A DNA stretch of 64,000 nucleotides, taken from contig JACOXH010000003.1 of NCBI GenBank assembly GCA_016176415.1, positions 12,419-76,418 on the forward strand, given 5' to 3'. This stretch comes from Candidatus Daviesbacteria bacterium. Lineage in GTDB: Bacteria > Patescibacteriota > Microgenomatia > Daviesbacterales > UBA10151. A program made the position numbers and the translations under genes. This document shows positions 3,122 to 59,738 of this stretch, in pieces. How positions within the stretch are numbered: the first letter of the stretch is position 1; each line of letters opens with the position of its first letter. The notes under the pieces are model-generated. The model did no database searches. It saw only the letters and a program-made list of their open reading frames with translations, and was not told where the DNA came from.

Positions 3122-4539
3122 GCGAGCTCTTTTATTCTGTTTAATAAGTAATCTTTATTGTTTTTTTCAGCGTTTTCTAAAACTTCTTCAAAAAGTTTTT
3201 GTAAAATTTCACCAATTTTAGGACCGGATTTAATATTTAATACCTCCATTATATCATTACCGTTTACTTTTAAATCTGAAATAGAAAATGGTTTTTGTAA
3301 AACCTGTTTAATTCTTTCATTGAATTTTTCCATTCTCCAAGAGACCGCTCTTTGTGTGCCTCCCCCCAGTCTGTCACCTATTCTCACTGCCATCATATCC
3401 TCAATATTTTCCAGCCCCACGTTATTAATAAAACGCCTGATGGCAGAATCAGTTTGATTTTCATCTACTGTAAAAAGATGCCATCTGACTAATTTGTATA
3501 ATTTATCAGTTTGTTTTTTGGATAAATTAAATCTTTGGGCAATTTGTAAAACTAACCTTCCTCCGTAAACATCATGGTTGTAAAAGGTAACATTGCCATC
3601 GCTTTCAGTTTTGACAGTTTGCACTTTGCCGATATCGTGTAAAAGTGCAGCTAATCTGACTAGGGAATTTTTTGATGGAGTATGCTGTAAAGTCATCAGA
3701 GAGTGTTCTCCTATATCGTAAACTCTGTCATGCTTGGGTCCTTGCTGCACAATACCAAAACATCTTTCCAGCTCAGGTAAAATAATTTGCAATATTCCTG
3801 CCTCCCTTAATTTGTTGATACCCTCAAGAGGGTTCTCAGCTGATAAAATTTTAAATAACTCATTTCTTACCCTTTCTTTTGCAATTTCCTCAATAAGTCC
3901 TGCATTTTCTTTTATTGCTTCAAAAGTTTTAATTTCTATCTCAAACTTTAATTGAGTAGCAATCCTTATTGCTCTTATCAACCTTAAGGCATCTTCTTTA
4001 AACCGATCATTGGGATTTCCAACAGTGCGAATGATTTTATCATGTATGTCTTTTTCTCCATGATAAGGATCTATGAGAGTCAAGTCGCTAGAATCTAGAG
4101 TCAAAGAGTTTATTTTCCTAGACTCTTGACTCTTGACTCTTGACTCTATACCCAAAGCAATAGCATTAATAGTAAAATCCCGTCTGGCTAAATCCTCTTC
4201 AATTTTATCAGTCCAGCCAACCTGGGCAGGGTGACGGAAATCTTTATAGTCACCCTCCTTCCTCATGGTAGTGACTTCGAAAACTTCCACCTCGGGGGAG
4301 TCAAAGCCCACCCCCGAGGTGTTCTTCGTCGGTATTCCCACAGTGCCGAATTTATTGTCGTAAAAGCCTTCAGGGATAATTTTTAAAATTTCCTCTGGTT
4401 TGGCATCAGTAGTAAAGTCCCAGTCGTTAACTTCTTTACCCATTAAAATGTCTCTGACTGCCCCTCCGACAATGTAAATTTGAAAACCGGCTTTTTGAAA
4501 CTTATTTAAAATATCTTCTACTTCTTTAGGTAAGTGCAT
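3118..4539 (-). CDS. cca: CCA-adding tRNA nucleotidyltransferase / poly(A) polymerase family with HD domain
   Basis: N-terminal 'IYIVGGAVRDILMG...DWDFTT' is the pol-beta nucleotidyltransferase head. C-terminal 'LAALLHDIGK' is the HD domain. Contains in-frame repeat insertions (see repeats). Confidence 0.75.
   Translation of the reverse strand: MHLPKEVEDILNKFQKAGFQIYIVGGAVRDILMGKEVNDWDFTTDAKPEEILKIIPEGFYDNKFGTVGIPTKNTSGVGFDSPEVEVFEVTTMRKEGDYKDFRHPAQVGWTDKIEEDLARRDFTINAIALGIESRVKSQESRKINSLTLDSSDLTLIDPYHGEKDIHDKIIRTVGNPNDRFKEDALRLIRAIRIATQLKFEIEIKTFEAIKENAGLIEEIAKERVRNELFKILSAENPLEGINKLREAGILQIILPELERCFGIVQQGPKHDRVYDIGEHSLMTLQHTPSKNSLVRLAALLHDIGKVQTVKTESDGNVTFYNHDVYGGRLVLQIAQRFNLSKKQTDKLYKLVRWHLFTVDENQTDSAIRRFINNVGLENIEDMMAVRIGDRLGGGTQRAVSWRMEKFNERIKQVLQKPFSISDLKVNGNDIMEVLNIKSGPKIGEILQKLFEEVLENAEKNNKDYLLNRIKELA
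4078..4147. repeat. Low-complexity insertion inside cca: inverted 'gagtcaag/cttgactc' plus 4 tandem heptamers 'gactctt'
   Basis: Direct reading: 4121-4147 gactcttgactcttgactcttgactct. Translates in-frame as 'ESRVKSQESRK'. Confidence 0.6.
4284..4321. repeat. REP-like hairpin copy (CCACCTCGGGGG-AGTCAAAGCCCA-CCCCCGAGGTG) inserted in-frame in cca
   Basis: Perfect 11-bp inverted repeat with 12-nt loop. Shares core CCACCCCCGAGGTG with the IS200-like element ends at 59000/59716. Confidence 0.7.
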
Positions 4540-4605: not shown

Positions 4606-6282
4606 ATGATACAATGCAGCTTGCAAAGGAAACTAAAAGTGAAGTGGAGAATACTGCCAAAAAAGTCAGATAGTTTAACAGAGCAGCTTTTGATAAACCG
4701 CGGTATAAAGAGCGAAAAGGAAATAAAACAATTTTTTAACCCCAGGATTTCAGATTTTGAAAAAGATTTACAAATCCCCGGTACTTCAAAAGCGCATAAA
4801 AGAATTCTGGAGGCAATAAAAAAAGAGGAACTGATAGCAGTGTATGGAGATTATGATGTAGACGGGATTTGCGCCTCGGCAATTTTGTATAAGGGTTTAA
4901 CATCAATTGGGGCAAAAGTCCTACCGTATATTCCTCACAGAGATAAAGAAGGGTATGGACTTTCTGTTACCGGACTTGATTCCATTAAACTGTCAGGCGC
5001 AAAGTTGGTAATTACTGTAGATAACGGGATTGTAGCAGTAGAACAGGCAAAATATGCTAAAAGTTTAGGACTGGATTTAATTATTACAGATCATCATATC
5101 CCGGGTGATCAGGAGCCTGATGCTTATGCAATAGTTCATTCAACAAAAATGTGTGGGGCCTCTGTGGCATGGTGTTTAACCCGTGACCTTATTAAAGAAG
5201 ATTTATCAGAGGAGCTTTTACAATTTGCAGCCATAGCTACAGTTTGTGATCTTTTGCCTTTGGTGGGTTTAGGCAGGGGATTCGTCACAGAAGGTCTTAA
5301 GGTTTTAAGAAGCACCACTAATCCCGGGATATTGGCACTTTTGAATGAAGCGGGTGTATCGGTTGGAAATATCAGCTCTTTTGAAATAGGTTTTATACTA
5401 GGTCCAAGACTTAATGCTATGGGCAGAATGGAGCATGCCATAGATTCTCTGCGTCTGCTTTGCACCAAAGATCCGGTTAAGGCAAGAAGTTTGGCAAAGC
5501 TTTTGTGTAATACCAACGCCAGTCGTCAAAAATTAACAACAGAGGCTTTGGAAGAAGCTAAAGAGATGGTTAAAAAAGACAGCAAAATTCATATTTTATA
5601 CTCAAAAAACTGGTCAGCAGGAATCATAGGACTCGTGGCAGGGAGGGTTTGTGAAGAATACTCGCTACCTGCAATTGCCATTTCAGTAGGGGAAGAAATT
5701 TCCAAAGGTTCGGCCCGTTCTGTTGACGGTATCAATATTGTGGAAGTAATCAGGAAGCATGCTGATATTTTAATTGATGTAGGAGGACACAAAGGGGCAG
5801 CAGGATTTTCTATTTTAAGCAAACATTTAGAAACTTTTAAAAAAAGATTAGAGCAGATAGTTTTGACAGTGCCGGAAGAGAAGGTTTTGGAAATTGATGC
5901 TGAGGTTTATAGCAGTCAGTTAAATAAAACTTTAATAAAAGAGCTGGAGAAATTTGAGCCTTTTGGACTGGATAACAGAAGGCCTGTGTTTGTTTCATTT
6001 AACATGAAAGTATCAGATATCAGAACTGTGGGGAATGGAAAACATTTGAAATTTAAAATTTCTTCCTGTCATTCTGAGCACATTTGCTTCGCTCAGTGTA
6101 AACTCCGCGAAGAATCTAATTATATTGATGCTATAGCATTTGGCATGGGAGAGTGGGAAAAGCTGCTTAAGACAGGACAGATGATAGATTTAGCTTTCAA
6201 TATAGAACTTGATACTTATGGTGGATTTGAAAAAGTGCAATTAAAAGTTAAGGACTTGAGAGTGGGGCAGTTTGGAGTGTAG
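4606..6282 (+). CDS. recJ: Single-stranded-DNA-specific exonuclease RecJ
   Basis: DHH motifs 'VYGDYDVDGI' and 'ITDHHIPG'. DHHA1-like C-terminal region. Confidence 0.85.
   Translation: MIQCSLQRKLKVKWRILPKKSDSLTEQLLINRGIKSEKEIKQFFNPRISDFEKDLQIPGTSKAHKRILEAIKKEELIAVYGDYDVDGICASAILYKGLTSIGAKVLPYIPHRDKEGYGLSVTGLDSIKLSGAKLVITVDNGIVAVEQAKYAKSLGLDLIITDHHIPGDQEPDAYAIVHSTKMCGASVAWCLTRDLIKEDLSEELLQFAAIATVCDLLPLVGLGRGFVTEGLKVLRSTTNPGILALLNEAGVSVGNISSFEIGFILGPRLNAMGRMEHAIDSLRLLCTKDPVKARSLAKLLCNTNASRQKLTTEALEEAKEMVKKDSKIHILYSKNWSAGIIGLVAGRVCEEYSLPAIAISVGEEISKGSARSVDGINIVEVIRKHADILIDVGGHKGAAGFSILSKHLETFKKRLEQIVLTVPEEKVLEIDAEVYSSQLNKTLIKELEKFEPFGLDNRRPVFVSFNMKVSDIRTVGNGKHLKFKISSCHSEHICFAQCKLREESNYIDAIAFGMGEWEKLLKTGQMIDLAFNIELDTYGGFEKVQLKVKDLRVGQFGV
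6067..6117. repeat. Family-2 short repeat copy (TGTCATTCTGAGC-[insert]-GCGAAGAATCT) in-frame inside recJ
   Basis: Flanks identical to copy at 49731-49756. Contains hairpin CTGAGC...CGCTCAG. Encodes 'SCHSEHICFAQCKLREESN'. Confidence 0.6.
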
Positions 6283-10148: not shown

Positions 10149-11492
10149 ATGGAGAGAACATTAATTTTAGACTGTAATGAGAAAATTGATCAAACAGTAC
10201 ATATTTGTGGTTTTGTGCAAGTCAGGCGCGATCACGGAAAAATTGTATTTTTAGACATAGCTGACAGATCTGCTGTTATTCAGGTGGTAATATCGTCAGA
10301 TGCAATCCACCTCGAAGGAGTCAAAGCCCACCTTCGAGGTGATATTAGGCCGCAGGATGTTGTCTGTATAACAGGAAAAGTTAATAAACGCCCCGAACAC
10401 TTAATAAATAAAAATATCCCTACAGGCGGTATTGAGATTTTTGCTGAGAGTATTGAAGTTTTGTCAAAAGCATCAGAATTACCTTTTGACATGGGCGGAA
10501 AGGATCTGGATCTGCAGCTTCCCACTTTGCTGGATTACCGTTCTTTAACTTTGCGTCACCCAAAAATAAAATCAATTTTTAAAGTGCAGTCTGCAATTTT
10601 AGAAGGTTTTAGAAAAGCAGTAAAAGAGATTGGGTGTACTGAAATTGTAGTGCCCACTATTGTGGCAGGTTCTACAGAAGGAGGGGCAGAAGTGTTTAAA
10701 GTAGATTATTTTGAACACAAAGCATATTTATCCCAAAGCCCGCAACTTTATAAACAAATGTTGATACCGGTATTGGAAAGAGTGTTTACCATTGCCAAAG
10801 CATACAGAGCAGAACCTTCAGTCACAACCAGACATTTAACAGAGGTAACTCAAATGGATGTGGAAATTGGATTTACCAACTTTGAGGAACTATTGGATAT
10901 TTTGGAAAATACTGCCACAAATATGTTGGAGTTTTGCCAAAAAGAATGCGAAGATATTTTATCTGAATTTGGAGTGGAAAAAATTAGTATTGGAAAAATT
11001 CCCAGACTTACTTTAAGAGAAGCACAAGAGTTAATTTTAAAAGAGTTTGGCCGTGACAACAGAAAAGAGAAAGATTTAACACCGCAAGATGAAATTGATC
11101 TTTGTAAGTGGGCCAAAGAAAAACACGACAGTGATTTTGTGACGGTGACTCATTTTCCAACTAATGCCAAGCCTTTTTATACTATGCCTGACCCCAAAAA
11201 TCCTGAATATTCTCTAAGTTATGATTTGCTTTTCAGGGGGGTTGAGGTAATGAGTGGTAGTCAAAGGATTAATGATTATGGGCAGCTGGTAGATTCTATT
11301 AAAGGAAGGGGCATGGATCCGGATAGTTTTGAGATGTATCTTCAGGCTTTTAAATACGGCATGCCTCCTGAAGGAGGATTTTCTTTCGGTTTGGAAAGAG
11401 TAACAATGCATGTATTAAATCTTGCTAATATCAGAGAAGCTTCACTTTTTCCCAGAGATATGGAAAGAGTAGATACTAGATTAAGTAAGTGA
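10149..11492 (+). CDS. aspS: Class IIb aspartyl/asparaginyl-tRNA synthetase (archaeal/type-2 AspRS-like)
   Basis: N-terminal OB anticodon-binding domain. Class II motifs 'FRAE', 'GGFSFGLERV', C-terminal 'FPRD'. Size ~447 aa fits type-2 AspRS/AsnRS. Confidence 0.75.
   Translation: MERTLILDCNEKIDQTVHICGFVQVRRDHGKIVFLDIADRSAVIQVVISSDAIHLEGVKAHLRGDIRPQDVVCITGKVNKRPEHLINKNIPTGGIEIFAESIEVLSKASELPFDMGGKDLDLQLPTLLDYRSLTLRHPKIKSIFKVQSAILEGFRKAVKEIGCTEIVVPTIVAGSTEGGAEVFKVDYFEHKAYLSQSPQLYKQMLIPVLERVFTIAKAYRAEPSVTTRHLTEVTQMDVEIGFTNFEELLDILENTATNMLEFCQKECEDILSEFGVEKISIGKIPRLTLREAQELILKEFGRDNRKEKDLTPQDEIDLCKWAKEKHDSDFVTVTHFPTNAKPFYTMPDPKNPEYSLSYDLLFRGVEVMSGSQRINDYGQLVDSIKGRGMDPDSFEMYLQAFKYGMPPEGGFSFGLERVTMHVLNLANIREASLFPRDMERVDTRLSK
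10307..10341. repeat. REP-like hairpin copy (CCACCTCGAAGG-AGTCAAAGCCCA-CCTTCGAGGTG) in-frame in aspS
   Basis: Same loop and outer stem as 4284-4321 copy. Inner stem GGGG/CCCC replaced by AAGG/CCTT (compensatory). Confidence 0.7.
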
Positions 11493-15180: not shown

Positions 15181-15216
15181 TTTATACAGGTAAAAATTGG
15201 TATAATTTCCATGCAT

Positions 15217-15287
15217 TGCGGGATCATCTAACGGTAGGATACATGCCTCTGGAGCATGGCATCTTGGTTCAAATCCAAGTCCCGCAA
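15217..15287 (+). tRNA. tRNA-Gln (anticodon CUG)
   Basis: Manual fold: acceptor TGCGGGA/TCCCGCA, D-loop with GG, anticodon stem CATGC/GCATG with loop CTCTGGA (U33, anticodon CTG), T-arm CTTGG-TTCAAAT-CCAAG, discriminator A. CCA not encoded. Confidence 0.75.
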
Positions 15288-15365
15288 CCCTTCGACTTTG
15301 GTTCGACTACTTCGACTCCGCTCAGTACAGGAACGCTCACCATCGCTCAGGGTTATAACCCTGAT
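15288..15365. repeat. Family-2 repeat cluster immediately 3' of tRNA-Gln (TTCGACT x3, CGCTCAG x2, palindrome CAGGGTTATAACCCTG)
   Basis: Direct reading; related copies at 22061-22106 (inverted), 40438-40457, 6067-6117, 49731-49756. Confidence 0.55.
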
Positions 15366-15385
15366 AAATGTACTATACTTACTTA

Positions 15386-15691
15386 ATGAGTAGGTCGAAG
15401 GGCTGTTATACTGTTTATATTCTTAGGACCTCTGCTAATACACTGTATATTGGTCAAACTAATAATTTAGAAAAAAGGCTAAAAGAACATCAAAATAAAT
15501 CTTCCAAATCTGCCAAATATATTAAATATTTTGATTCTTTTCGATTGGTTTACTCAGAACAATACCCTACCAGAATTGAAACAATGAGAAGAGAATATCA
15601 ACTTAAACATTGGTCAAAAGCTAAAAAAGAAGCATTAATTTCCGGTAACGTGCAATTAATAAAATTGCCAAAACTGCAACAGCCACAATAA
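15386..15691 (+). CDS. GIY-YIG nuclease-family small protein
   Basis: 'YTVYILRTSANTLYIGQTNNLEKRLKEH' is the GIY-YIG motif. Likely start MSRSKGCY (track ORF starts 15368). Confidence 0.7.
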   Translation: MSRSKGCYTVYILRTSANTLYIGQTNNLEKRLKEHQNKSSKSAKYIKYFDSFRLVYSEQYPTRIETMRREYQLKHWSKAKKEALISGNVQLIKLPKLQQPQ

Positions 15692-16046
15692 GCCAAACCA
15701 TATAACCATAATAGCAGATATAATAAATTGATTTGTGGCATGGCAGTGAGCACCCGTCCTGAACTTGCTGAAGGATGTTGAATGGGCTATAGTACTGAGT
15801 GAAATCGAAGTGCTAAAATAAGGCAAGAAAATATGGGATTAAATGAAGCAGATACAAGAATACAATTAATGACTCTAATTCTAATGCTTGTGATTGGTAT
15901 GAGTACCTTATTACAGTTTCTGGAAAATCAAAAGCTGGATGATGAACCTGTAAAAACACCATTCACGCCTATCTTTGCAACGACAAGTTCTAACTACAGT
16001 GGTACTGCTAGTGGCACAACTACCACTTTGTAGGTAAAATAAAAAA

Positions 16047-17714
16047 ATGGCACAACTACAATTTAAAGGAAAACAATTTGTACAAAATCATCATTTATCT
16101 GTTCCTTATCATGAGTTGATTCCCAAAAAGGATAAAAGTTTAACGGATAAAGTTAGCTTGCATGATAATTTAATTATTCATGGTGATAATCTAAAGGCAT
16201 TAAAAGCCTTACTCCCCACTTACGCTGGTAAAATCAAATGTATTTATATTGATCCTCCATATAACACAGGTAATGAGGGATGGGTTTACTCCGATAATGT
16301 TAATTCCCCAATGATTCAGGAATGGCTGAAGGCAAATAAACCAGTAGACAACGAAGACCTAACCCGTCATGACAAATGGCTTTGTATGATGACTCCACGA
16401 CTTAAACTTCTTAGAGAGCTACTAAAAGATGATGGTGTAATTTTTGTATCAATAGATGACAACGAAGTTCATCACTTACGAATGTTAATGGATGAAATTT
16501 TTGGAGCGGAAAACTTTATAGCCATACTTCCTACGATAATGAACCTAAAAGGAAATCAGGATCAATATGGTTTCGCTGGAACGCATGAATATATTGTTGT
16601 ATTTGCTAATTATAGAGATAAGTCTAAGGTAGGAGAGTTTAGTTTAAATAATTTAGAGGAAGAGGGGTGGGAGGAAGACGAGGTTAGTTATTTTAAAAAG
16701 GGCGCAAATCTAAAATCTTCAGGGGTTAATGCGCCTCGAGAGAAGAGACCCAACCTTTACTTTCCTATTTATATTACAAAGGATAACAATATTATCCTAA
16801 ATAGATCTTCTAAAGATGACTTAGAAATTTTCCCAGTTACTGACGGAAAAGAAATGTGTTGGCGATGGAGTAAAGAGAAAATGAAAAGCGAAACTTATGA
16901 TTTAATGGTTGCAAGAGAGGGGGATGTAGTTAGCATATACAAGAAACAGAGACCAGAATTAGGTGAGCTGCCCTCTAGAAAACCAAAATCACTATTTTAT
17001 AAACCGCAGTATAGTAGCGGTAATGGAACCAATCAAATAAAAACAATTTTTGGGGAGAAGGTTTTTGACAATCCTAAACCGCTTGAACTAATCAAAGATA
17101 TATTATCCATTTCAACTGACTCTGATTCAATAGTTTTGGATTCCTTCGCTGGCTCAGGAACTACAGCTCATGCTACGCTTGTCTTAAATAAAGAAGATGG
17201 TGGTAATCGTAAATTTATACTCGTTGAACTTGAAGATACTGTAGCAGATAAAATTACTGCTGAAAGAGTAAAAAAAGTTATCAAAGGTGTTCCAAGAGCG
17301 AGGAATGAGAATCTTAAAAATGGATTAGGTGGGACTTTTAGTTATTTTGAACTTGGGAAACCGATTGAGTTAGAAAGTATTCTTTCAGGAAGTAACTTAC
17401 CTACGTATAAAGAATTAGCTAGGTATGTATTTTATACTGCAACCGGTGAAGAATTTGACGAGAGTAAAGTTGATGAAGAGAAAAATTTTATTGGAGAAAG
17501 CAAAGATTATGAAGTCTACTTATTTTATAAACCGGATTTAGATTATCTTAAAAATACTGCATTAACTTTAGACCGTGCCAGATCTTTGGGTAAGCACAAC
17601 GGCAAAAAACGTCTTATTTTTGCTCCTGCAAAATATTTAGATCAAGATCATTTAGATGAACTAAGAATAGACTTTGCCCAGTTACCTTTTGAGATTTACA
17701 AACTAGCTAAATAA
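16047..17714 (+). CDS. mod: Type III restriction-modification system methyltransferase (Mod), N6-adenine/N4-cytosine beta-class
   Basis: Motif IV 'IYIDPPYNTG' precedes motif I 'DSFAGSGTTAHA'. 555 aa. Confidence 0.85.
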   Translation: MAQLQFKGKQFVQNHHLSVPYHELIPKKDKSLTDKVSLHDNLIIHGDNLKALKALLPTYAGKIKCIYIDPPYNTGNEGWVYSDNVNSPMIQEWLKANKPVDNEDLTRHDKWLCMMTPRLKLLRELLKDDGVIFVSIDDNEVHHLRMLMDEIFGAENFIAILPTIMNLKGNQDQYGFAGTHEYIVVFANYRDKSKVGEFSLNNLEEEGWEEDEVSYFKKGANLKSSGVNAPREKRPNLYFPIYITKDNNIILNRSSKDDLEIFPVTDGKEMCWRWSKEKMKSETYDLMVAREGDVVSIYKKQRPELGELPSRKPKSLFYKPQYSSGNGTNQIKTIFGEKVFDNPKPLELIKDILSISTDSDSIVLDSFAGSGTTAHATLVLNKEDGGNRKFILVELEDTVADKITAERVKKVIKGVPRARNENLKNGLGGTFSYFELGKPIELESILSGSNLPTYKELARYVFYTATGEEFDESKVDEEKNFIGESKDYEVYLFYKPDLDYLKNTALTLDRARSLGKHNGKKRLIFAPAKYLDQDHLDELRIDFAQLPFEIYKLAK

Positions 17715-22060: not shown

Positions 22061-22106
22061 CATTCGAGTCTGAGCGACGAGGTCGCTAGACCTCAGAGTC
22101 GAAGAC
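22061..22106. repeat. Family-2 repeat copy, inverted relative to the copy at 15288-15365
   Basis: CTGAGCG...AGTCGAAG core. Imperfect palindrome TCGAGTCTGAGCGAC / GTCGCTAGACCTCAGAGTCGAA. Confidence 0.5.
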
Positions 22107-26233: not shown

Positions 26234-28326
26234 TGAAAATGTATACCTGTCCAATGGATCCGGATGTAATAAAAGATGAGCCCGGTAATTGCCCAAAGTG
26301 TGGAATGAAGCTGGTAGTAATGGGGGATCATGGCGCCCACGAGGGTCATGCTTCGATGGAATATGATTTTAGAAAGCGCTTTTTTATCACACTTCCTTTT
26401 GTAATTCTTTCAATCTTTCTTTCCCCGATGATCCGGATGTGGCTGGGGATTGATGTGGCGATTCCTTTTGGGGAAATGCTGCTTTTTGTAGTCGGCGCTT
26501 TTATCTTTTTCTACGGCGGTTGGCCTTTTTTCATTGCAGCCAAAGGTGAGATATCCACCCGCAACTACGGCATGATGACTTTAGTGGCTTTTGCCATTAC
26601 TGTAGGATTTACCTTTTCAGTGGCAGCCACGTTTCTATTCCCCGGTGAGTCTTTATATTGGGAAATTGCAACTTTAATTTCGGTATTTTTGCTGGGACAC
26701 TGGCTGGAAATGAGAGCGGTGAGAGGCGCTACCGGCGCTTTGGCAGAACTGGCTAAACTGATTCCTCCCTCAGCGCACCTTTTAAAGGATGGCAAGGTGA
26801 CTGATGTGCAGACAAGTGAACTTAAGATTAAAGACGTGGTTTTGGTCAAACCCGGTGAAAAAATCCCGGTTGACGGCATTGTGATTGATGGAGAAAGCTC
26901 TGTTAACGAATCAATGGTGACAGGGGAATCAAGACCAATCGGTAAAAAGAAAGGTGATAAAGTAATCGGAGGCACCATCAATCAGGATGGATCGTTGACA
27001 ATTGAGGTTGCCAAAACAGGCGCAGATACTGCCGTCTCACAAATTATGAAGCTGGTCAGGGAAGCTCAAGCCTCAAAGCCCAATGTCCAGCATTTGGCTG
27101 ATAAAGCGGCTAATGTTTTGACATTTGCGGCTATTATTGCCGGTGGTGGAGCATTTTTATTTTGGTTTTTCATTGAACCCAGGGGTGCTGTTTTTGCAGC
27201 CACTTTGGCAGTTTCAGCAATTGTAGTGGCTTGTCCTCATGCTTTGGGACTGGCTATTCCTACAGTTACAACTATAACTTCTATGCTCGGGGCAAAAAAC
27301 GGCATTTTGATAAAAGATATGAAGGGTTTGGAGATAGCCAGAAAAATAAGTTATGTAGTTTTTGATAAGACCGGCACTTTAACAAAAGGGGAATTTGGAG
27401 TTGTTGATGTTATTCTGAACGAAGTGAAGAATCTCAAAATTAAATCTAGAGATTCTTCGCTAATCACTCAGAATGACATATTAAAATTGGCGGCGGCTGT
27501 AGAGGTTCAATCACAACATTCGATTGCCCAGGGGATTGTTAATGAAGCTAAAAAGAAAAATCTGGAGATACCGCAAGTTAAAGAGTTCAAATCTTTTCCC
27601 GGTAAAGGAGCGCAAGGCAAAGTTGACGGCATGACTGTGGCTGTGGGCAACAAGGTCTTAATGGAAGAGTTGAAGGTCAAAATGGAAGATCTGAAAACAG
27701 GGAAAAAAGGCAATACCCCGATTTTTGCTGCCATTGACGGGAAGCTGGCGGGAATCATTCTGCTGGCTGATATTATCAGGGAAGAATCAAAAGAGGCGGT
27801 AAAAAGGCTTCATGATATGGGAATAAAAACAGCAATGTTAACAGGTGATGTTAAAGATGTAGCAGATGAAGTAGGGAAAGAACTTGATATGGATACTGTT
27901 TTTGCCCAGGTTTTACCTGAAGATAAGGTGAATAAAATAAAACAGCTGCAAGCGCAAGGTAATATAGTGGCAATGGTAGGGGACGGGGTGAATGATGCCC
28001 CTTCTTTGACTCAATCACATGTAGGAATTGCTATTGGCGCAGGAACTGATGTAGCAGTGGAATCTGCTGATATAGTGCTGATGAAAAACGACCCGATGGA
28101 TGTGGTTAAAGCCATATCTTTGAGCAGAAAAACCAACAGCAAAATGATTCAAAATTTAATTTGGGCCACAGGTTATAATGTATTTGCTATTCCCACTGCA
28201 GCAGGGGTTTTGTATTTGAATCTGGGAATACTTTTAAGACCTGAATGGGCAGCTTTGCTTATGAGCGCATCATCAATAATTGTGGTTTTTAATGCCTTGC
28301 TTTTAAGAAGAGCAAAGTTAGATTGA
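26233..28326 (+). CDS. copB: Copper-translocating P1B-type ATPase, CopB-like (CPH motif)
   Basis: N-terminal 'CPMDPDV...CPKCGM' metal-binding, TM 'CPH', 'DKTGTLT', 'GDGVNDAP'. Confidence 0.85.
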
Positions 28327-39835: not shown

Positions 39836-40413
39836 TGTTTCAAAAGTCTTTCTGTGTATTTTGCCAAAATATCTGTTTCAATGTTGACTAAGTCGCCGGT
39901 TTTTAAGGTGTTTAGCATGGTATTGTTCCATGTATACGTGATAATTCCAACCGTAAAATGAGTTTTTCCTGCCTCAATTACGGTCAAAGAGATACCATTG
40001 ACAGTAATCGATCCTTTTTCTGCAATGTATCTGGTAAGACGGGAGGGAAGAGAGAATTTAAGAATAAAGCTATTTTTTTGTTTTGTAATGCTTAAAAGTT
40101 TAGCAACTCCGTCAACGTGGCCTTGTACTATATGCCCTGATAAAAAAGCTTGAGGGGTTAAAGGTAATTCCAAATTAACTATATCATTTACCTTAAGATA
40201 AGCCAGCATGGTTTTCTTTCGTGTCTCGGGCATCACTTCAACAGAAAAAGAATCTTTTGTAGGTTTTTTGAAAATAGTTAGGCAAACTCCATTTATGGCA
40301 ACACTGGTGCCGATTTTCAGTTTTTTGCAGAAAGATTGTTCAGCATTAAATGCCAGAACTGATCCGTTGCTACTATAAAGTTTCCCTAGATGGGTAATAA
40401 TTCCTGTAAACAT
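39832..40413 (-). CDS. ribE: Riboflavin synthase alpha subunit
   Basis: 'MFTGIITHLG' start and duplicated lumazine-binding halves. Confidence 0.85.
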   Translation of the reverse strand: MFTGIITHLGKLYSSNGSVLAFNAEQSFCKKLKIGTSVAINGVCLTIFKKPTKDSFSVEVMPETRKKTMLAYLKVNDIVNLELPLTPQAFLSGHIVQGHVDGVAKLLSITKQKNSFILKFSLPSRLTRYIAEKGSITVNGISLTVIEAGKTHFTVGIITYTWNNTMLNTLKTGDLVNIETDILAKYTERLLKQ

Positions 40414-40416
40414 ATT

Positions 40417-40586
40417 CTCTCTTTCATCCCGACTGTACCCTTCGACTACGCTCAGGGTCCTTCTCTGAAGGACGGTCGCTACCGGAGTTTCGCCGGTTCC
40501 TGCTTTTTAGGGCTCGTGGAGTTTACCACCGATCTTGACTTACACAACGTTGAAGTTGATTTACAACTTCAACCCCCGAAAGAATG
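40417..40586 (-). ncRNA. FMN riboswitch (RFN element)-like leader of the rib operon, with an extra ~38-nt insertion
   Basis: Minus-strand RNA read by eye: 'CUUUCGGGGG', 'GAUCGGUGGUA...GAGCCC', 'AACCGGCGAAACUCCGGUAGCGACC', 3' 'CAGUCGGGAUGAAAGAGAG'. Resembles RFN blocks (CUUCGGGGC / ACCGGCGGUA / GGAUUCGGUGAGAUUCCGGAGCCGAC / AGUCUGGAUGGGAGAAG). Extended -10 'TGaTATAAT' at ~40593-40603. Confidence 0.5.
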
Positions 40587-40736
40587 GCTACATTATATCA
40601 TTTTCCCTCAAAAAAACTCGCACAAAGCGAGTTTTCTTGAAAACTTACTTTTCAGTAAGCGTTAATATTTAATCAAAAACAAATTTGTTGGTCAAGTGGT
40701 ACAAAATAGATCATGAGGTGTGATATAGTATCTTCA

Positions 40737-45471: not shown

Positions 45472-47382
45472 ATGGCAGTAGAAGATCCTATCTTGAAGTT
45501 AGCTGACGAAGCCCGTAGGGCTGTTGCCCCTAGTGGGGAAAATGTCTTTAAAAGAGGTTTAAATAAACTTGGAAATTTGGCAGGCGGGGTAGGCAGAAAG
45601 GCAGGAGGGGCTTTGGGAGGTGTGGGTAATGCAGCAGGCGGTGCCAGAGATATGGCAGGAAACATGGTAGGAGGAGTAGGTCATGGCTTGGGTGCAGGAG
45701 CCAGAGCAGTTGGTGATGGGACAGTGGGGGTTTTAGGCGGAGTAGCTCATTTAGGAATTGAGGGAGCCAAATTGCCTTTTAAGGGGGCAGGAAAAGGGGT
45801 AGAACTAGCTAAAAAATTAGGTACAGAAGCTGTAATTGGGAAAGCAGGAGATGTATTGAAAAATGTTCCTGCGTTTGGTAAGTCTATTGCCGGTTTTGCA
45901 ACGGGTAAAATAGGTGAAGTAGGGGCAGGTATGGCTTCCAGAGAATTAGCCAAAGGTGTACTTGCCTGGACTGCTACTACTGCAGGAATAGGAACAGGTA
46001 TAACAGGAACATGGGTAGGCGGAGCTTTTGTAGGCGCTATGGGTGGCGCTATGATTGAATGGGGCCGGCAGATAAATCAAAATCTTAAGGAGTCAGATCC
46101 TTCTATTGCCGGAAGAAGAGCGGCTTTTTTGCTGAAATTTAAAGAATTGCGTCATGCAGGAGTATTAAAACCCCGTGATTTGAAGAAGATCCGTAATGCA
46201 GCTATTTTTGGAGCTATCGCCGGCGCAGGCGCAGGAGCATTAGTTCAATTTGTTCCGGAAATTGCCCAATTCGTCGGCGAACATTCAGGGTTTTTGACAG
46301 GAACAGGTGATACAGCGGGAGCTGCAGCAGGTACTACAGCAGATGCTTTAGGAGGGGTAGGGGGTAGTATTGGTAATGCGGCAGGAGGAATCGGAGAAGG
46401 AATTGGTGGAGTATGGAGCGGAACGGGAGAGGCTATTGGGGGTATTGCCGGTGGAGCGGGCGAAATGACGCAAGGCGTTAGAGATATGGCTGGTAACCTT
46501 CCCGGAGTCAAAGGAACAGGAGATGTTTTAGGAGGTATAGGTAATGCTGCAGGAAATGTTTGGAGTGGAACAGGTGAAGTGGCAGGAGGAGCGCTGGCTA
46601 GAACAGGAGAAACAATAGGCGGAGCCACACAAACCACTGGAGATTTTGCCCGTAGTCTTCCCATGGGACAAGGAGCTGCTGATACTTTAGGAGGGGTGGG
46701 CGGTGCTATCGGCGGAGGGTTAGGACAAGCAGGAGAAGCAATAGGAAACGCCGCGCAAGCTGTGGGGTTAGGTGGTGCGCAAGAGGCAGCCCAGCAGGCG
46801 GGTCAGGAAACAGCCCAGGGAGCAGCAGAGCAGGCAGCCGGGGAAGCAGGAAATACAGGCTTGAGTGAGACTGTACAGGCAGCGGCAGATGAGGCCAATA
46901 GTACGGCTGCACTTGATGCAAGTAATGCAGCGGTCGGTGAAGCAGTCCAACAGACCGGTCAGGAAACGGTCCAGCAAGTAGGTCAGGAAGCGCTTGAGGA
47001 AGCAGGACAAGAGGTTGCTCAAGGTACAGAACCTATTGCCAATACAATGGTGCATGGTCATGAGGTTGCAGGGTCTGTGGTTGACCAGTCTTTAACTTAT
47101 GATGGTGCCCCCTGGGTACTGCTGGAAAACGGGACTAAAAACATTGGTAATGTTTTGGAGGCTGCAGGAATTGACGGCGCTCTTGAGGCTGTTGATAAAG
47201 GTGTGTTGGCCCAAAACTTACAGCAGGCAACCAATCTTTGGACACAGGGGCAGTTAACTCCTTCTGCCTATCCTGATCTTTATACTTTATTTCATTTGAG
47301 CAACGGCACTGCCAGTGTTTATAATGATCTTTTAAATGAAGATACTGTTGATATTCTTAAGAAGTTGAAAGTATTAAAGTAA
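45472..47382 (+). CDS. Large (636 aa) Gly/Ala-rich repetitive protein with central hydrophobic stretch and Gln/Glu/Ala-rich tail
   Basis: Dozens of 'G.(A/V)GG.(G/A)..G' units (e.g. GNLAGGVGRKAGGALGGVGNAAGGA), 'WTATTAGIGTGITGTWVGGAFVGAMGGAMI', then 'QQAGQETAQGAAEQAAGEAG'. Confidence 0.5.
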   Translation: MAVEDPILKLADEARRAVAPSGENVFKRGLNKLGNLAGGVGRKAGGALGGVGNAAGGARDMAGNMVGGVGHGLGAGARAVGDGTVGVLGGVAHLGIEGAKLPFKGAGKGVELAKKLGTEAVIGKAGDVLKNVPAFGKSIAGFATGKIGEVGAGMASRELAKGVLAWTATTAGIGTGITGTWVGGAFVGAMGGAMIEWGRQINQNLKESDPSIAGRRAAFLLKFKELRHAGVLKPRDLKKIRNAAIFGAIAGAGAGALVQFVPEIAQFVGEHSGFLTGTGDTAGAAAGTTADALGGVGGSIGNAAGGIGEGIGGVWSGTGEAIGGIAGGAGEMTQGVRDMAGNLPGVKGTGDVLGGIGNAAGNVWSGTGEVAGGALARTGETIGGATQTTGDFARSLPMGQGAADTLGGVGGAIGGGLGQAGEAIGNAAQAVGLGGAQEAAQQAGQETAQGAAEQAAGEAGNTGLSETVQAAADEANSTAALDASNAAVGEAVQQTGQETVQQVGQEALEEAGQEVAQGTEPIANTMVHGHEVAGSVVDQSLTYDGAPWVLLENGTKNIGNVLEAAGIDGALEAVDKGVLAQNLQQATNLWTQGQLTPSAYPDLYTLFHLSNGTASVYNDLLNEDTVDILKKLKVLK

Positions 47383-48896: not shown

Positions 48897-49774
48897 CGGA
48901 CTACTACTCTTGTCCCGGGGTTTTCAGGGGTGGCATGACCCACATTTTCCCCTGCAGGAACCACTGGTCCTGCCCATTCAAACAGTTTTGCCACAGAGGC
49001 CAGAGGGGAGTTGACGCAACCATGGCTCATTGGGTGACCAAAGTTGTTGTGCCAGTAAGCCCCGTGAATTGCATAGCCTTTATGAAAAAAAATGTTGTGG
49101 GGAACATTAGGCAGATAGTAGTAAGTTCCCAGCTCTTTTGAGCCTCCTGACATGGTTTGACTTCTGGTTTTGTGCCAGATATTAAAAGTGCCTTTTGGTG
49201 TAGGTGCCCAAAGGCCTGAAGAAATAGGAAATTCCATAACTAATTTATTTCCTTCCCATGCCCGTAGTTTTTGTTCTGCCAAAGAGACTTCTATCCACTT
49301 CTCTTCACCACTTTCAGTAGTGGTGCCTAACACTGCCTGATCTTGATTTGAAGATTTTGCCAAAGATTCCTTAAGATCGTCAGATCGCAAGCTTTGCTTA
49401 TAGCTGTAAGCAAGAGAGGTTTTTGGGTAATCAATTACCTTGCTGTTAAAAATAGCAGTAGCAGCTTCTTCGTCAAATTTACCATTAGCTTTTAAAACAT
49501 CTTCCTCGTTAAAGTCAGAATGGGTGATATCACCTGAAATATTTAACTTATATACTACAGTTCTTTTGATAGTTTGAAAATTCAAAGAAACAAATAAAAT
49601 AACGCCTATTAACAGTAAAAGAGGTATCAGACGGTGCAACATATCTTTAAGAGTGTGTCCGTCTTCCACACTAATTCCATTGTTGATTACTTTTAATATA
49701 GACGTCAAGGGCCAGTTTGCTCCCCCTCTGTCATTCTGAGCGAAGCGAAGAATCTGATATGATAGATAATTCAT
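48893..49774 (-). CDS. L,D-transpeptidase (YkuD domain)
   Basis: 'HGAYWHNNFGHPMSHGCVNS' catalytic motif. N-terminal 22 aa are encoded by a Family-2 repeat, so true start may be the internal MLHRLIP. Confidence 0.7.
   Translation of the reverse strand: MNYLSYQILRFAQNDRGGANWPLTSILKVINNGISVEDGHTLKDMLHRLIPLLLLIGVILFVSLNFQTIKRTVVYKLNISGDITHSDFNEEDVLKANGKFDEEAATAIFNSKVIDYPKTSLAYSYKQSLRSDDLKESLAKSSNQDQAVLGTTTESGEEKWIEVSLAEQKLRAWEGNKLVMEFPISSGLWAPTPKGTFNIWHKTRSQTMSGGSKELGTYYYLPNVPHNIFFHKGYAIHGAYWHNNFGHPMSHGCVNSPLASVAKLFEWAGPVVPAGENVGHATPENPGTRVVVR
49731..49756. repeat. Family-2 repeat copy GTCATTCTGAGCGAAGCGAAGAATCT at ldt N-terminus / dac junction
   Basis: Exact flank match to 6067-6117 copy. Confidence 0.6.
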
Positions 49775-58950: not shown

Positions 58951-58999
58951 AGATATATTTTATCACTCTCTACTGTTGACTAACCCGACGTGCAGCTAC

Positions 59000-59738
59000 A
59001 CTTCCACCCCCGAGGTGGAAGTTAGGTGGAAGTTAATCTTCGCCATCTAAGAGCTGGTGTTTAATTAATTCCAATTCCTGCGCATAGCTAATTTGGTCGT
59101 CAGTAAACTTTTTATAATCTGCAACAGATTTAAAAAAATTAAGTATTTCTTCCTTTGTACATACTCCTTTACCATTCAAATATTCATTGTAAGATGACCA
59201 TTCATAATCCTCTGGTTTCTTGGTCAGAAACGAAGAAACAGAATTTAAGTGGATATATCTTGATACATGGACTAATTGTTCGTCAGATTCTATTAAGACA
59301 GCTTTAAATTGTCCCTGCAATAGAGGGCCAACTCTATTAAATTTAGTATTATAAAATTTAGTATAGCTATTGGTAAGCTTGCTAATAAATTCGCTTATAC
59401 CACCTTCTTTCAGTTGTTTTATCAGGAAATGAAAATGGTTAGGCATTAAGCAGTAACAGACGATGTCAACTATTTTTTTATTAGGATCAGGCTCGAATGA
59501 TTTATATTGGATAAAGTTTGAAAATTTCGGTTTAGGCCCTTCTAAGCGATAATAATTAATTGCCTGTAAAAATCGTGTATATGTTCTTCTGTTTTCATAT
59601 ATTCTTCTTTTTTCCACTCCACGGTTGTAAATGTGATAAAACTGACCGTTAATTAAAGGAATAATTCTTGCTGGCATAGATTTAGAATAAATAAAAATTA
59701 CCGAGGTGTCAATACACTTTCACCCCCGAGGTGGAAGT
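59000..59738 (-). mobile_element. IS200/IS605-like element: Y1 HUH transposase flanked by same-orientation subterminal hairpins ACTT(C/T)CACC-CCCGA-GGTGGAAGT
   Basis: Hairpins at 59000-59022 and 59716-59738, gene between. About 740 bp is typical IS200 size. Confidence 0.55.
59033..59677 (-). CDS. tnpA: IS200-like / REP-associated tyrosine (Y1, HUH) transposase
   Basis: HUH motif 'CLMPNHFHFLI' and catalytic Tyr region 'VSRYIHLNSV'. 214 aa (longer than canonical IS200 TnpA, like RAYTs). Confidence 0.7.
   Translation of the reverse strand: MPARIIPLINGQFYHIYNRGVEKRRIYENRRTYTRFLQAINYYRLEGPKPKFSNFIQYKSFEPDPNKKIVDIVCYCLMPNHFHFLIKQLKEGGISEFISKLTNSYTKFYNTKFNRVGPLLQGQFKAVLIESDEQLVHVSRYIHLNSVSSFLTKKPEDYEWSSYNEYLNGKGVCTKEEILNFFKSVADYKKFTDDQISYAQELELIKHQLLDGED

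Follow-up and report, generated by a model that had tools for sequence, protein, structure and literature searches.

Dispersed hairpin repeats and a hairpin-flanked GIY-YIG gene in a Candidatus Daviesbacteria genome, a probable relative of the Ssn/SRM pairing

In the 64,000-nt stretch of a Candidatus Daviesbacteria genome analysed here (the window), short hairpin repeats, whose single units we call arms, surround a gene for a small predicted GIY-YIG nuclease. The locus opens with a plus-strand tRNA-Gln(CTG) gene (15216–15290), and the first arm (15287–15353, minus strand; ACCCT-GA-GCG...GTC-GA-AGGGT) begins at the 3′ CCA end of this tRNA and is continuous with it; the arm was found by a structure-based scan and carries partial arms nested in its apical loop. 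A second arm (15359–15402, plus strand; CCCT-GA...GTC-GA-AGGG), read by eye, has a putative 4-bp stem and an AT-rich apical region that would hold the start codon of the nuclease gene. This ssn-like gene (15386–15691, plus strand) encodes a predicted single-domain protein of 101 residues, in which the Pfam GIY-YIG model matched residues 7–81 (E 1.9e-17). Two further plus-strand arms lie 3′ of the gene, a degenerate one seen by eye only (15756–15776; GTCCT-GA-ACTTGCT-GA-AGGAT) and one recovered both by a word search and by the structure scan (15792–15813; GTACT-GA-GTGAAATC-GA-AGTGC). The gene therefore has arms on both flanks, as Ssn genes often have Ssn-related hairpin motifs (SRM). Just 3′ of it stands an N6/N4 DNA methylase open reading frame (ORF; 16047–17714), a synteny shared with locus L001, and within this ORF the scan picked up a possible short arm on the minus strand (17141–17160; TTCCT-GA-GCCAGC-GA-AGGAA, TTCCTGAGCCAGCGAAGGAA), which may be a chance match.

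A sequence-only reading of the window had described a family of dispersed repeats at five sites, with common boundaries and a hairpin module inside. The family is genuine, and all five sites were found where that reading had placed them. As it had noted, the copies at 6067–6117 and 49729–49755 have exactly TGTCATTCTGAGC and GCGAAGAATCT in common and differ in the middle alone, which is 27 nt long in the former and 3 nt (GAA) in the latter. Its list of copies was incomplete, however: it overlooked the best copy, an inverted doublet at 27409–27477 in a P-type ATPase ORF, the arms at 15756–15776 and 15792–15813 and possibly that at 17141–17160, as well as the GIY-YIG gene between the 15.3-kb arms, which is the key to the identity of the element.

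Arms were counted with the structure-based scan, which looked for an inner stem with GA on either side, enclosed by a 5-bp stem, and was compared with shuffled sequence. It returned 8 arms in the window versus 0.47 in shuffles, a chance rate of roughly 0.5 matches per window. Two arms with 4-bp stems (15359–15402 and 22066–22105) were beyond the reach of a 5-bp scan and were read by eye, bringing the total to about 10 arms versus 0.5 expected by chance. The 16-mer CTTCGACTNCGCTCAG occurs at 15310 and 40440 and again, inverted and with two mismatches, at 15795, compared to 0.03 expected by chance. For a chance likeness among short low-complexity words one can cite the 12-nt word, which taken by itself with two mismatches was not above chance, but the count of full arms, the three occurrences of the 16-mer and exact 26-mers in at least 120 stretches of public genomes refute this explanation, to which we assign next to no probability.

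Each arm is a separate hairpin, in which a 5-bp stem leads through a tandem GA/GA internal loop to a GC stem capped by an apical loop. The copies had been described as one family, and they are indeed related through the core CTGAGCG...CGAAG, the opposite strand of which (CTTCG...CGCTCAG) was the second consensus of the sequence-only reading, but they split into two classes. Class A has the form GTC-ATNCT-GA-GC-(GNA or a longer stem-loop)-GC-GA-AGN′AT-CT, which in the window reads GTC-ATTCT-GA-GC-loop-GC-GA-AGAAT-CT, and it carries oriented flanks of the NTS/SRM type, with GTC on the 5′ side and C on the 3′ side (GTC-ATTCT...AGAAT-C). Class B has a variable stem of 4–5 bp, then GA-GCG...(G)TC-GA and the complementary stem, and it includes the arms at 15287–15353, 15359–15402 and 15792–15813. 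Arms in the window are 21–67 nt long, inverted-repeat hairpins comparable to the 20–50 nt of SRM and NTS repeats; variation in length is restricted to the apical loop and itself extends the stem, and arms are commonly nested in the apical loops of other arms.

Pairing was assessed in 25 distinct arms from public loci, taken with the paired positions left free and with sequences selected by our own pattern excluded. In this set 94.9% of cells were paired, compared to 23–48% in slid controls. Compensatory changes were seen in all four variable pairs (UA/CG; CG/UA/GC; GC/AU; CG/UA), and the 25 double-change cells, versus 8.4 ± 2.1 in shuffles, were matched by none of 500 shuffles. Based upon this covariation, and not upon folding energy, we accept the fold of single arms: each arm is a hairpin, and selection maintains its pairing. 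Selection could in principle act on RNA, with the arms as stabilising or terminator-like hairpins or as tRNA T-arm mimics kept by a host RNA-binding factor, and the covariation, the arm that abuts the 3′ end of a tRNA, the copy in a riboswitch loop and a TTCGA likeness to the T-arm would all suit such a role. At gathering thresholds, however, Rfam identified the tRNA only and no family for the arms; the arms have no T-run after them, and copies are found in either orientation relative to host genes and also within coding regions. Moreover, the conserved unpaired GTC...C flanks and the one-strand tandem GA fit recognition of single-stranded DNA (ssDNA) by a protein, and SsnA does not bind the RNA version of its hairpin (PMC11893778). 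The T-arm resemblance pointed out by the sequence-only reading is real for TTCGA only, which is weak and not the defining feature of the element, and T-arm mimicry was rejected on that ground. Altogether, we regard an RNA-level role as highly improbable.

The GIY-YIG protein of the window is of the Ssn build, which is a single domain of about 94 residues with no additional DNA-binding domain; it has 101 residues, and its orthologues have a core of 90 residues. It is 100% identical to an NCBI protein of Candidatus Daviesbacteria, and no NCBIfam model scored above its cut-off against it. Exact-protein look-ups gave no match for a 107-residue version of the ORF or for the RecJ protein of the window, and the 101-residue start was found in two short contigs. 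Grouped at 50% identity, this large family comprises 27,151 clusters (E ≤ 1e-3). Within it, homologues across Microgenomates are 70–85% identical, and the subfamily of the window protein is approximately 40–47% identical to what we call the common subfamily (YYVYILTN...LYTGVTNN...); P0167, a single-domain GIY-YIG protein of the common subfamily, the genes of which are flanked by class A arms, is 47% identical to the window protein (E 2e-18). Many N-terminal "extensions" of the Microgenomates homologues are translated arms. More broadly, 12 of the 149 best representatives contain arm-derived peptides (FAQND, SLRMT, VILSEAK or a C-terminal DSSLRSE) in terminal extensions beside the GIY-YIG domain, in keeping with the earlier suggestion that such peptides recur in predicted proteins.

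Arms and small GIY-YIG genes are coupled across lineages. First, in 73 unique metagenomic loci that carry the Microgenomates-type gene, the 150 nt upstream of the GIY-YIG start hold 46 of 64 arms and make up 4% of the sequence, for a roughly 80-fold enrichment. Second, the order of arms is fixed in this set, with a minus-strand arm (GCCAT-GA-GCG...GAGTC-GA-ATGGC) 50–90 nt upstream of the start followed by a plus-strand arm (GTCCT-GA-GCG...AGTC-GA-AGGAT) 0–30 nt upstream. The window agrees with this layout: the plus-strand arm at 15359–15402 takes the position of the arm 0–30 nt ahead of the ATG, and the nested architecture of the 15287–15353 arm recurs upstream of the gene in related loci. Third, each of 10 further loci that encode the common subfamily has arms of the GTCAT type no more than 150 nt from the gene, and these arms bracket it on both sides wherever both flanks were examined. 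By source record or protein label, these ten loci are L019 (Gracilibacteria), L048 (Omnitrophota), L203 (Dehalococcoidia), L206 (Oscillospiraceae), L214 (Parcubacteria), L304 (a viral contig), L316 (Clostridia), L317, L318 and L320, and their usual layout is [GA-strand arm]-15–45 nt-ORF-[TC-strand arm]. Given this arm-gene-arm layout, the gene-less doublet at 27409–27477 looks like an internally deleted copy similar to a miniature inverted-repeat transposable element (MITE).

Two side observations concern genes of the Ssn type elsewhere. Other GTCAT-type arm classes stand beside such genes, one of the form GTCATTGCGAGG-GCGCTTCGCGC-CCGTGGCAATCCGT and others of the form GTCATCCCCG...CGGGGATCC or ...GCGGGAATGACA (loci L206–L212, Oscillospiraceae, and L048, labelled Omnitrophota); these arm classes may be the source of other recurrent "junk" peptides. 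In Parcubacteria loci L214–L223, a diversity-generating retroelement has an Ssn-type gene (1501–1800 in L214) between its bAvd and reverse-transcriptase genes, at the place expected for the template repeat, and a full arm doublet lies 11 nt ahead of the ATG of this Ssn-type gene.

The Microgenomates-type gene is also linked to tRNA-Gln. In 15 of 63 loci, fewer than 200 nt separate the end of a tRNA-Gln from the GIY-YIG gene downstream of it, and the nearest tRNA is never of another kind; in these loci the ...GCCA 3′ end of the tRNA passes directly into the first arm, the stem of which overlaps the discriminator-CCA end (...GCCA-TTCGACTC...CGCTCATGGC). Microgenomates loci with tRNA-Gln (CTG or TTG anticodon) just upstream of the ssn-like gene include L133, L134, L137, L140, L147, L185, L190 and L200, and other Microgenomates loci have a tRNA-3′-like remnant (TCTAGACCGGNNTGCTCAGCC) in its place. 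An integration into tRNA-Gln with an att-like duplication was considered and rejected, since no consistent direct repeat accompanies the tRNA-3′-like remnants that a few loci have downstream.

Copies of the repeat are not confined to the window. A scan of public genomes, one genome per species, with GTCATTCTGAGC-N(3–30)-GCGAAGAATCT found at least 120 stretches in many phyla. Among the matches listed, the exact 26-nt core GTCATTCTGAGCGNAGCGAAGAATCT occurs in more than 15 phyla or candidate phyla by assembly label, including Nitrospirota, Acidobacteriota, Chloroflexota, "delta proteobacteria", Bacteroidota, Ignavibacteria, Nitrospinota, Gracilibacteria, Saccharimonadales, Helicobacter, Coxiellaceae, Clostridia, Planctomycetales, Verrucomicrobiia, Omnitrophota, Armatimonadota, Fibrobacter and others, and it occurs in viral contigs as well; the class A core is present in 92 viral-contig stretches. 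The commonest form among the matches listed is the 26-mer found at 49730 in the window (35 of 138 public matches), usually followed by an inverted arm 20–60 nt further on. Of the 138 class A arms listed, 19 fall in frames that run for at least 250 codons without a stop, 7 of them deep inside the frame. A search for partner genes near these pan-bacterial arms, by all-against-all clustering of 4602 ORFs from 120 loci, gave only ABC transporters, short-chain dehydrogenases/reductases and similar families, and in the 826 kb around the 138 arms no protein family was enriched beyond common housekeeping families. The link to the GIY-YIG gene was found because of its own context in the window, not through clustering of ORFs around pan-bacterial arms.

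These surroundings bear on whether the arms are repetitive extragenic palindromic (REP/REPIN-type) elements mobilised by an HUH Y1 transposase, with the GIY-YIG gene as a bystander that attracts insertions. The repeats do resemble REP elements in their anatomy: their palindromes are imperfect, their 5′ foot is conserved, they occur as singlets and inverted doublets, and they nest in loops. Their 5′ foot is GTCA, however, whereas that of REPs is GT(A/G)G (GTAG or GTGG), and arms bracket the GIY-YIG gene in every one of the 10 further loci as well as in the 73-locus Microgenomates set. No transposase or other family was enriched in the 826 kb around the 138 arms, and no arm-flanked HUH Y1 transposase was among the families that recur near them, in a survey that included no Y1-specific hidden Markov model search. 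The authors of the Ssn study themselves drew an analogy with REPs and their associated tyrosine transposases (RAYTs), but they also reported binding and cleavage of such hairpins by Ssn (PMC11893778). We consider mobilisation by a Y1 transposase very unlikely.

At least one third of the arms in the window lie in genes or in a riboswitch. The copy in recJ (6068–6117, plus strand), recovered by the structure scan, is a class A arm whose apical part has a mosaic insertion of 27 nt (CTGAGC-acatttgcttc-GCTCAG-TGTAAACTCC). This arm is read in-frame in the RecJ OB domain, where it encodes CHSEHICFAQCKLREES. Eight RecJ orthologues (47–68% identical) have GKHLKFK-ADx-IDAIAFGMG at this place, compared to GKHLKFK-ISSCHSEHICFAQCKLREESNY-IDAIAFGMG in the window, a 19-residue insertion that none of the eight contains. 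Thus the recJ copy is in-frame in a functional gene, as had been claimed, and at least this one copy is an insertion relative to orthologues and recent by that comparison. Its inner module, CTCAGGGTAAACTCCGCGA(A/G)GAATCT, is also present in L026 and L076 (records labelled Terriglobia, of the Acidobacteriota), with a looser relative in L078 (labelled Dehalococcoidia).

The complete inverted doublet of class A arms (27409–27434 on the plus strand and 27450–27477 on the minus strand), identified by word searches and the structure scan, adds 69 nt (23 codons) in-frame to a 697-residue copper P-type ATPase ORF directly after the DKTGTLT motif (DKTGTLTKG). At the doublet, this CopA has 13 extra residues compared to A. 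fulgidus CopA (7r0g).

The copy that the sequence-only reading assigned to the leader of the rib operon is likewise real, and its location could be refined to the P6 apical loop of a flavin mononucleotide (FMN) riboswitch. It is a class B arm on the minus strand found by the structure scan (40437–40458; ACCCT-GA-GCGTAGTC-GA-AGGGT). The riboswitch itself, on the minus strand upstream of the rib genes, was a full-length match (40412–40587; 45.6 bits, E 2.6e-9) that falls under the Rfam gathering score of 66.2 because it contains two insertions. The longer (40 nt) falls in the P6 apical loop and holds the class B arm and a further hairpin, GTCCTTCAGAGAAGGAC; the shorter (35 nt) lies closer to the 5′ end of the aptamer.

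By contrast, the copy attributed to the N-terminus of an L,D-transpeptidase does not appear to be coding. This single class A arm (49730–49755, plus strand; GTCATTCTGAGCGAAGCGAAGAATCT), an exact match to the pan-bacterial consensus, probably lies upstream of the real start, as a promoter-like site and a methionine followed by a membrane anchor are found downstream of the arm. The extension of the ldt ORF through the arm is probably spurious and the arm intergenic, in the divergent region between ldt and a dacA-like gene. The longest ldt (minus strand) and D-Ala-D-Ala carboxypeptidase (plus strand) ORFs abut at 49773–49774 with zero intergenic space, a probable artefact that arises because the ldt ORF continues through the arm. 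The remaining arm, of class B with a 4-bp stem (22066–22105, plus strand; GTCT-GA-GCGACGAGGTCGCTAGACCTCAGAGTC-GA-AGAC), is intergenic and upstream of a TspO gene.

Taking these results together, we consider it likely that the repeats are Ssn-related (SRM-like) hairpin motifs, oriented palindromes that would be recognised by a small GIY-YIG ssDNA endonuclease of the Ssn kind. By analogy with the characterised enzymes (Chenal et al., 2025), the nuclease would bind only ssDNA, and only one strand of the arm, would cut a few nucleotides 5′ of GTC and would act on ssDNA intermediates such as incoming transforming DNA. In our own extension of this model, the unit may spread as a selfish element of the REP/RAYT type or in the manner of an insertion sequence (IS), and new copies would survive only where the peptide or RNA loop encoded by the hairpin is tolerated. 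Candidate tolerated places in the window are the OB-domain loop of RecJ, the CopA linker that follows the phosphorylation motif, the P6 loop of the riboswitch and the apical loops of other arms. Within this framework, the probable partner of the class B arms is the local GIY-YIG gene, and that of the class A arms is probably another Ssn gene, one of the common subfamily encoded elsewhere in the genome.

Several observations weigh against this interpretation. Cleavage, strand specificity and dependence on ssDNA are borrowed from the Neisseria and Wolbachia enzymes. The published SRM search motif, HGTCWYN(0-2)YYVSBRHN(0-5)WNVSBRGN(0-2)RNCYNB, passed the canonical NTS and had 0 matches in the window; it also failed on the pan-bacterial class A consensus, on class B and on the L206 (Oscillospiraceae) and L048 arms, although this motif is a pattern derived from 29 genomes and not a functional definition. 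Most class B arms do not have the unpaired 5′ GTC and 3′ C flanks: that at 40437 has GG...A, and related loci place GTC or GCC within the stem. As naked DNA, a single arm folded at −1.9 kcal/mol, with a z score of about 0 and no better than shuffles, as compared to −17.4 kcal/mol and a z score of −5.6 for the 27409–27477 doublet. E. coli YhbQ (34% identity over 95 residues, E 2e-16) is nearly as close to the window protein as is P0167, and membership of the window protein in cd10448 is putative. Class A arms were absent from 285 kb around the Microgenomates-type gene and yet number four in the window, which offers no evident cognate enzyme for class A. Finally, GIY-YIG nucleases are not known to have a strand-transfer (DNA-joining) activity that could account for the insertion of copies.

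Some of these points would be accommodated if the arms were non-autonomous MITEs of an unrelated transposon (DDE or other) and the GIY-YIG gene a passenger or landing pad: GIY-YIG enzymes are known to cut but are not known to join DNA, most loci have arms far from any GIY-YIG gene, and class A arms are missing around the local gene type. Against such an origin, we saw no target-site duplications and no terminal inverted repeats longer than the arm, and no transposase was enriched near arms. Across phyla the arms keep a stereotyped position, 0–45 nt ahead of the ATG and immediately after the stop, which suits a functional unit better than random landing, and specific recognition of hairpins by Ssn has been published (PMC11893778). 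We judge the MITE explanation unlikely and favour SRM-like motifs recognised by a nuclease of the Ssn kind.

A bolder proposal goes beyond recognition and cleavage. Units of the form arm-ssn-arm, together with gene-less doublets, might constitute an actively transposing element whose sole enzyme is a 90-residue GIY-YIG ssDNA nuclease, which would imply a new chemistry of transposition or homing, distinct from that of the DDE, HUH, serine, tyrosine and Cas1 classes. The tandem-GA class would then be one lineage carried almost unchanged, possibly with help from phages, across more than 15 phyla, and it would remodel proteins and riboswitches in the reduced genomes of the candidate phyla radiation (CPR) as Rickettsia palindromic elements (RPEs) do. 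We offer this proposal tentatively and regard it as possible but doubtful.

If the arms are SRM-like, the Ssn/SRM type of pairing extends to CPR/Patescibacteria, with a divergent nuclease subfamily tied to tRNA-Gln. Because the arm class escapes the published SRM motif, the abundance of the system is probably underestimated. The same very widespread hairpin class is the source of the recurrent VILSEAKNL, ILRFAQND and SLRMT peptides in hypothetical proteins, and it matters for annotation, as arms give rise to spurious ORFs, falsely extend proteins at the N- or C-terminus and drive a real FMN riboswitch below the Rfam threshold. The empty sites in RecJ orthologues and the insertions in CopA and the riboswitch are direct signs that SRM-type hairpins move and can be tolerated in essential genes, and these copies bear on the question of how such hairpins spread. 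The window also supplies candidate enzyme-substrate pairs for new ssDNA nuclease specificities.

Repeats of other kinds are present in the window. Palindromes of the TCCACCTCGGGGG...CCCCCGAGGTG type form another dispersed repeat (4286–4326, 10306–10346, 58985–59022 and 59701–59738; families D9 and D11), with copies 84–85% identical, and presumably correspond to the first repeat family of the sequence-only reading. A 69-nt GC-rich direct repeat (46783–46851 and 46939–47007; family D2), with copies 71% identical and 156 nt apart, lies within a 636-residue ORF (45472–47382) and resembles an internal protein repeat.

Three known systems and one known protein invite comparison. The REP/REPIN elements with their RAYT (TnpA_REP), including bacterial interspersed mosaic elements (BIMEs), are alike in having one enzyme gene between inverted hairpin repeats, singlets and inverted doublets, a mosaic or nested organisation and recognition of ssDNA hairpins. 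They differ in the fold of the enzyme, which is HUH Y1 there and GIY-YIG here, and REPs are species-specific, whereas the arm sequence is near-identical across phyla. E. coli YhbQ (UPF0213), annotated as a DNA damage response nuclease, is alike in size and in its single-domain GIY-YIG build. RPEs are palindromic repeats found in-frame in unrelated housekeeping genes at structurally tolerated places (PMC10969869). The copies in RecJ and CopA are in-frame palindromic insertions at tolerated sites in the same sense, a likeness of behaviour and not membership, and they belong to repeats of 21–69 nt as compared to about 100–150 bp for RPEs.

The closest counterpart is the Ssn/SRM pairing, described in 2025 from RefSeq genomes, with Rickettsia among the SRM-rich genera (Chenal et al., 2025; Nat Commun 16:2388; PMC11893778). 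Ssn is a single-domain GIY-YIG protein of about 94 residues (cd10448), and the NTS repeat (CGTCATTCCCGCGMAVGCGGGAATCYRG), generalised as the SRM, includes the Neisseria dRS3 repeat. Ssn binds the oriented hairpin repeat solely as ssDNA and on one strand, and it cuts a few nucleotides upstream of the repeat; the GTC 5′ of the palindrome matters for cleavage and the 3′ C for binding. SRMs are found in the flanks of 71% of Ssn homologues, and in N. meningitidis Ssn/NTS reduces transformation by NTS-bearing DNA. The authors noted the IS-like NTS-ssnA-NTS layout; their paper makes no mention of Patescibacteria or tRNA. Our literature searches on the arm sequence, on its peptides and on GIY-YIG together with MITE, REP or COG2827 returned nothing relevant.

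The window resembles the Ssn/SRM pairing in its single-domain GIY-YIG protein of roughly 90–100 residues, in the 20–50-nt oriented hairpin repeats that flank the gene, in repeats that start with GTCAT and end in ...ATC(C/T), such that class A has the same GTC-AT...AT-C frame as the NTS, and in dispersed singlets and inverted pairs with a wide range of phyla. It differs in the interior of the arm, which is TGAGC-loop-GCGAA with tandem GA/GA here and CCCGCG-loop-CGCGGG in the NTS, in the CPR host, in a local gene that belongs to a divergent subfamily linked to tRNA-Gln, and in the share of arms in genes or a riboswitch, at least one third in the window versus 2% of NTS within genes in N. meningitidis (PMC11893778). 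New here, then, are the CPR host, a tandem-GA arm class outside the SRM motif, a nuclease gene linked to tRNA-Gln and arms in RecJ, CopA and the P6 loop of an FMN riboswitch.

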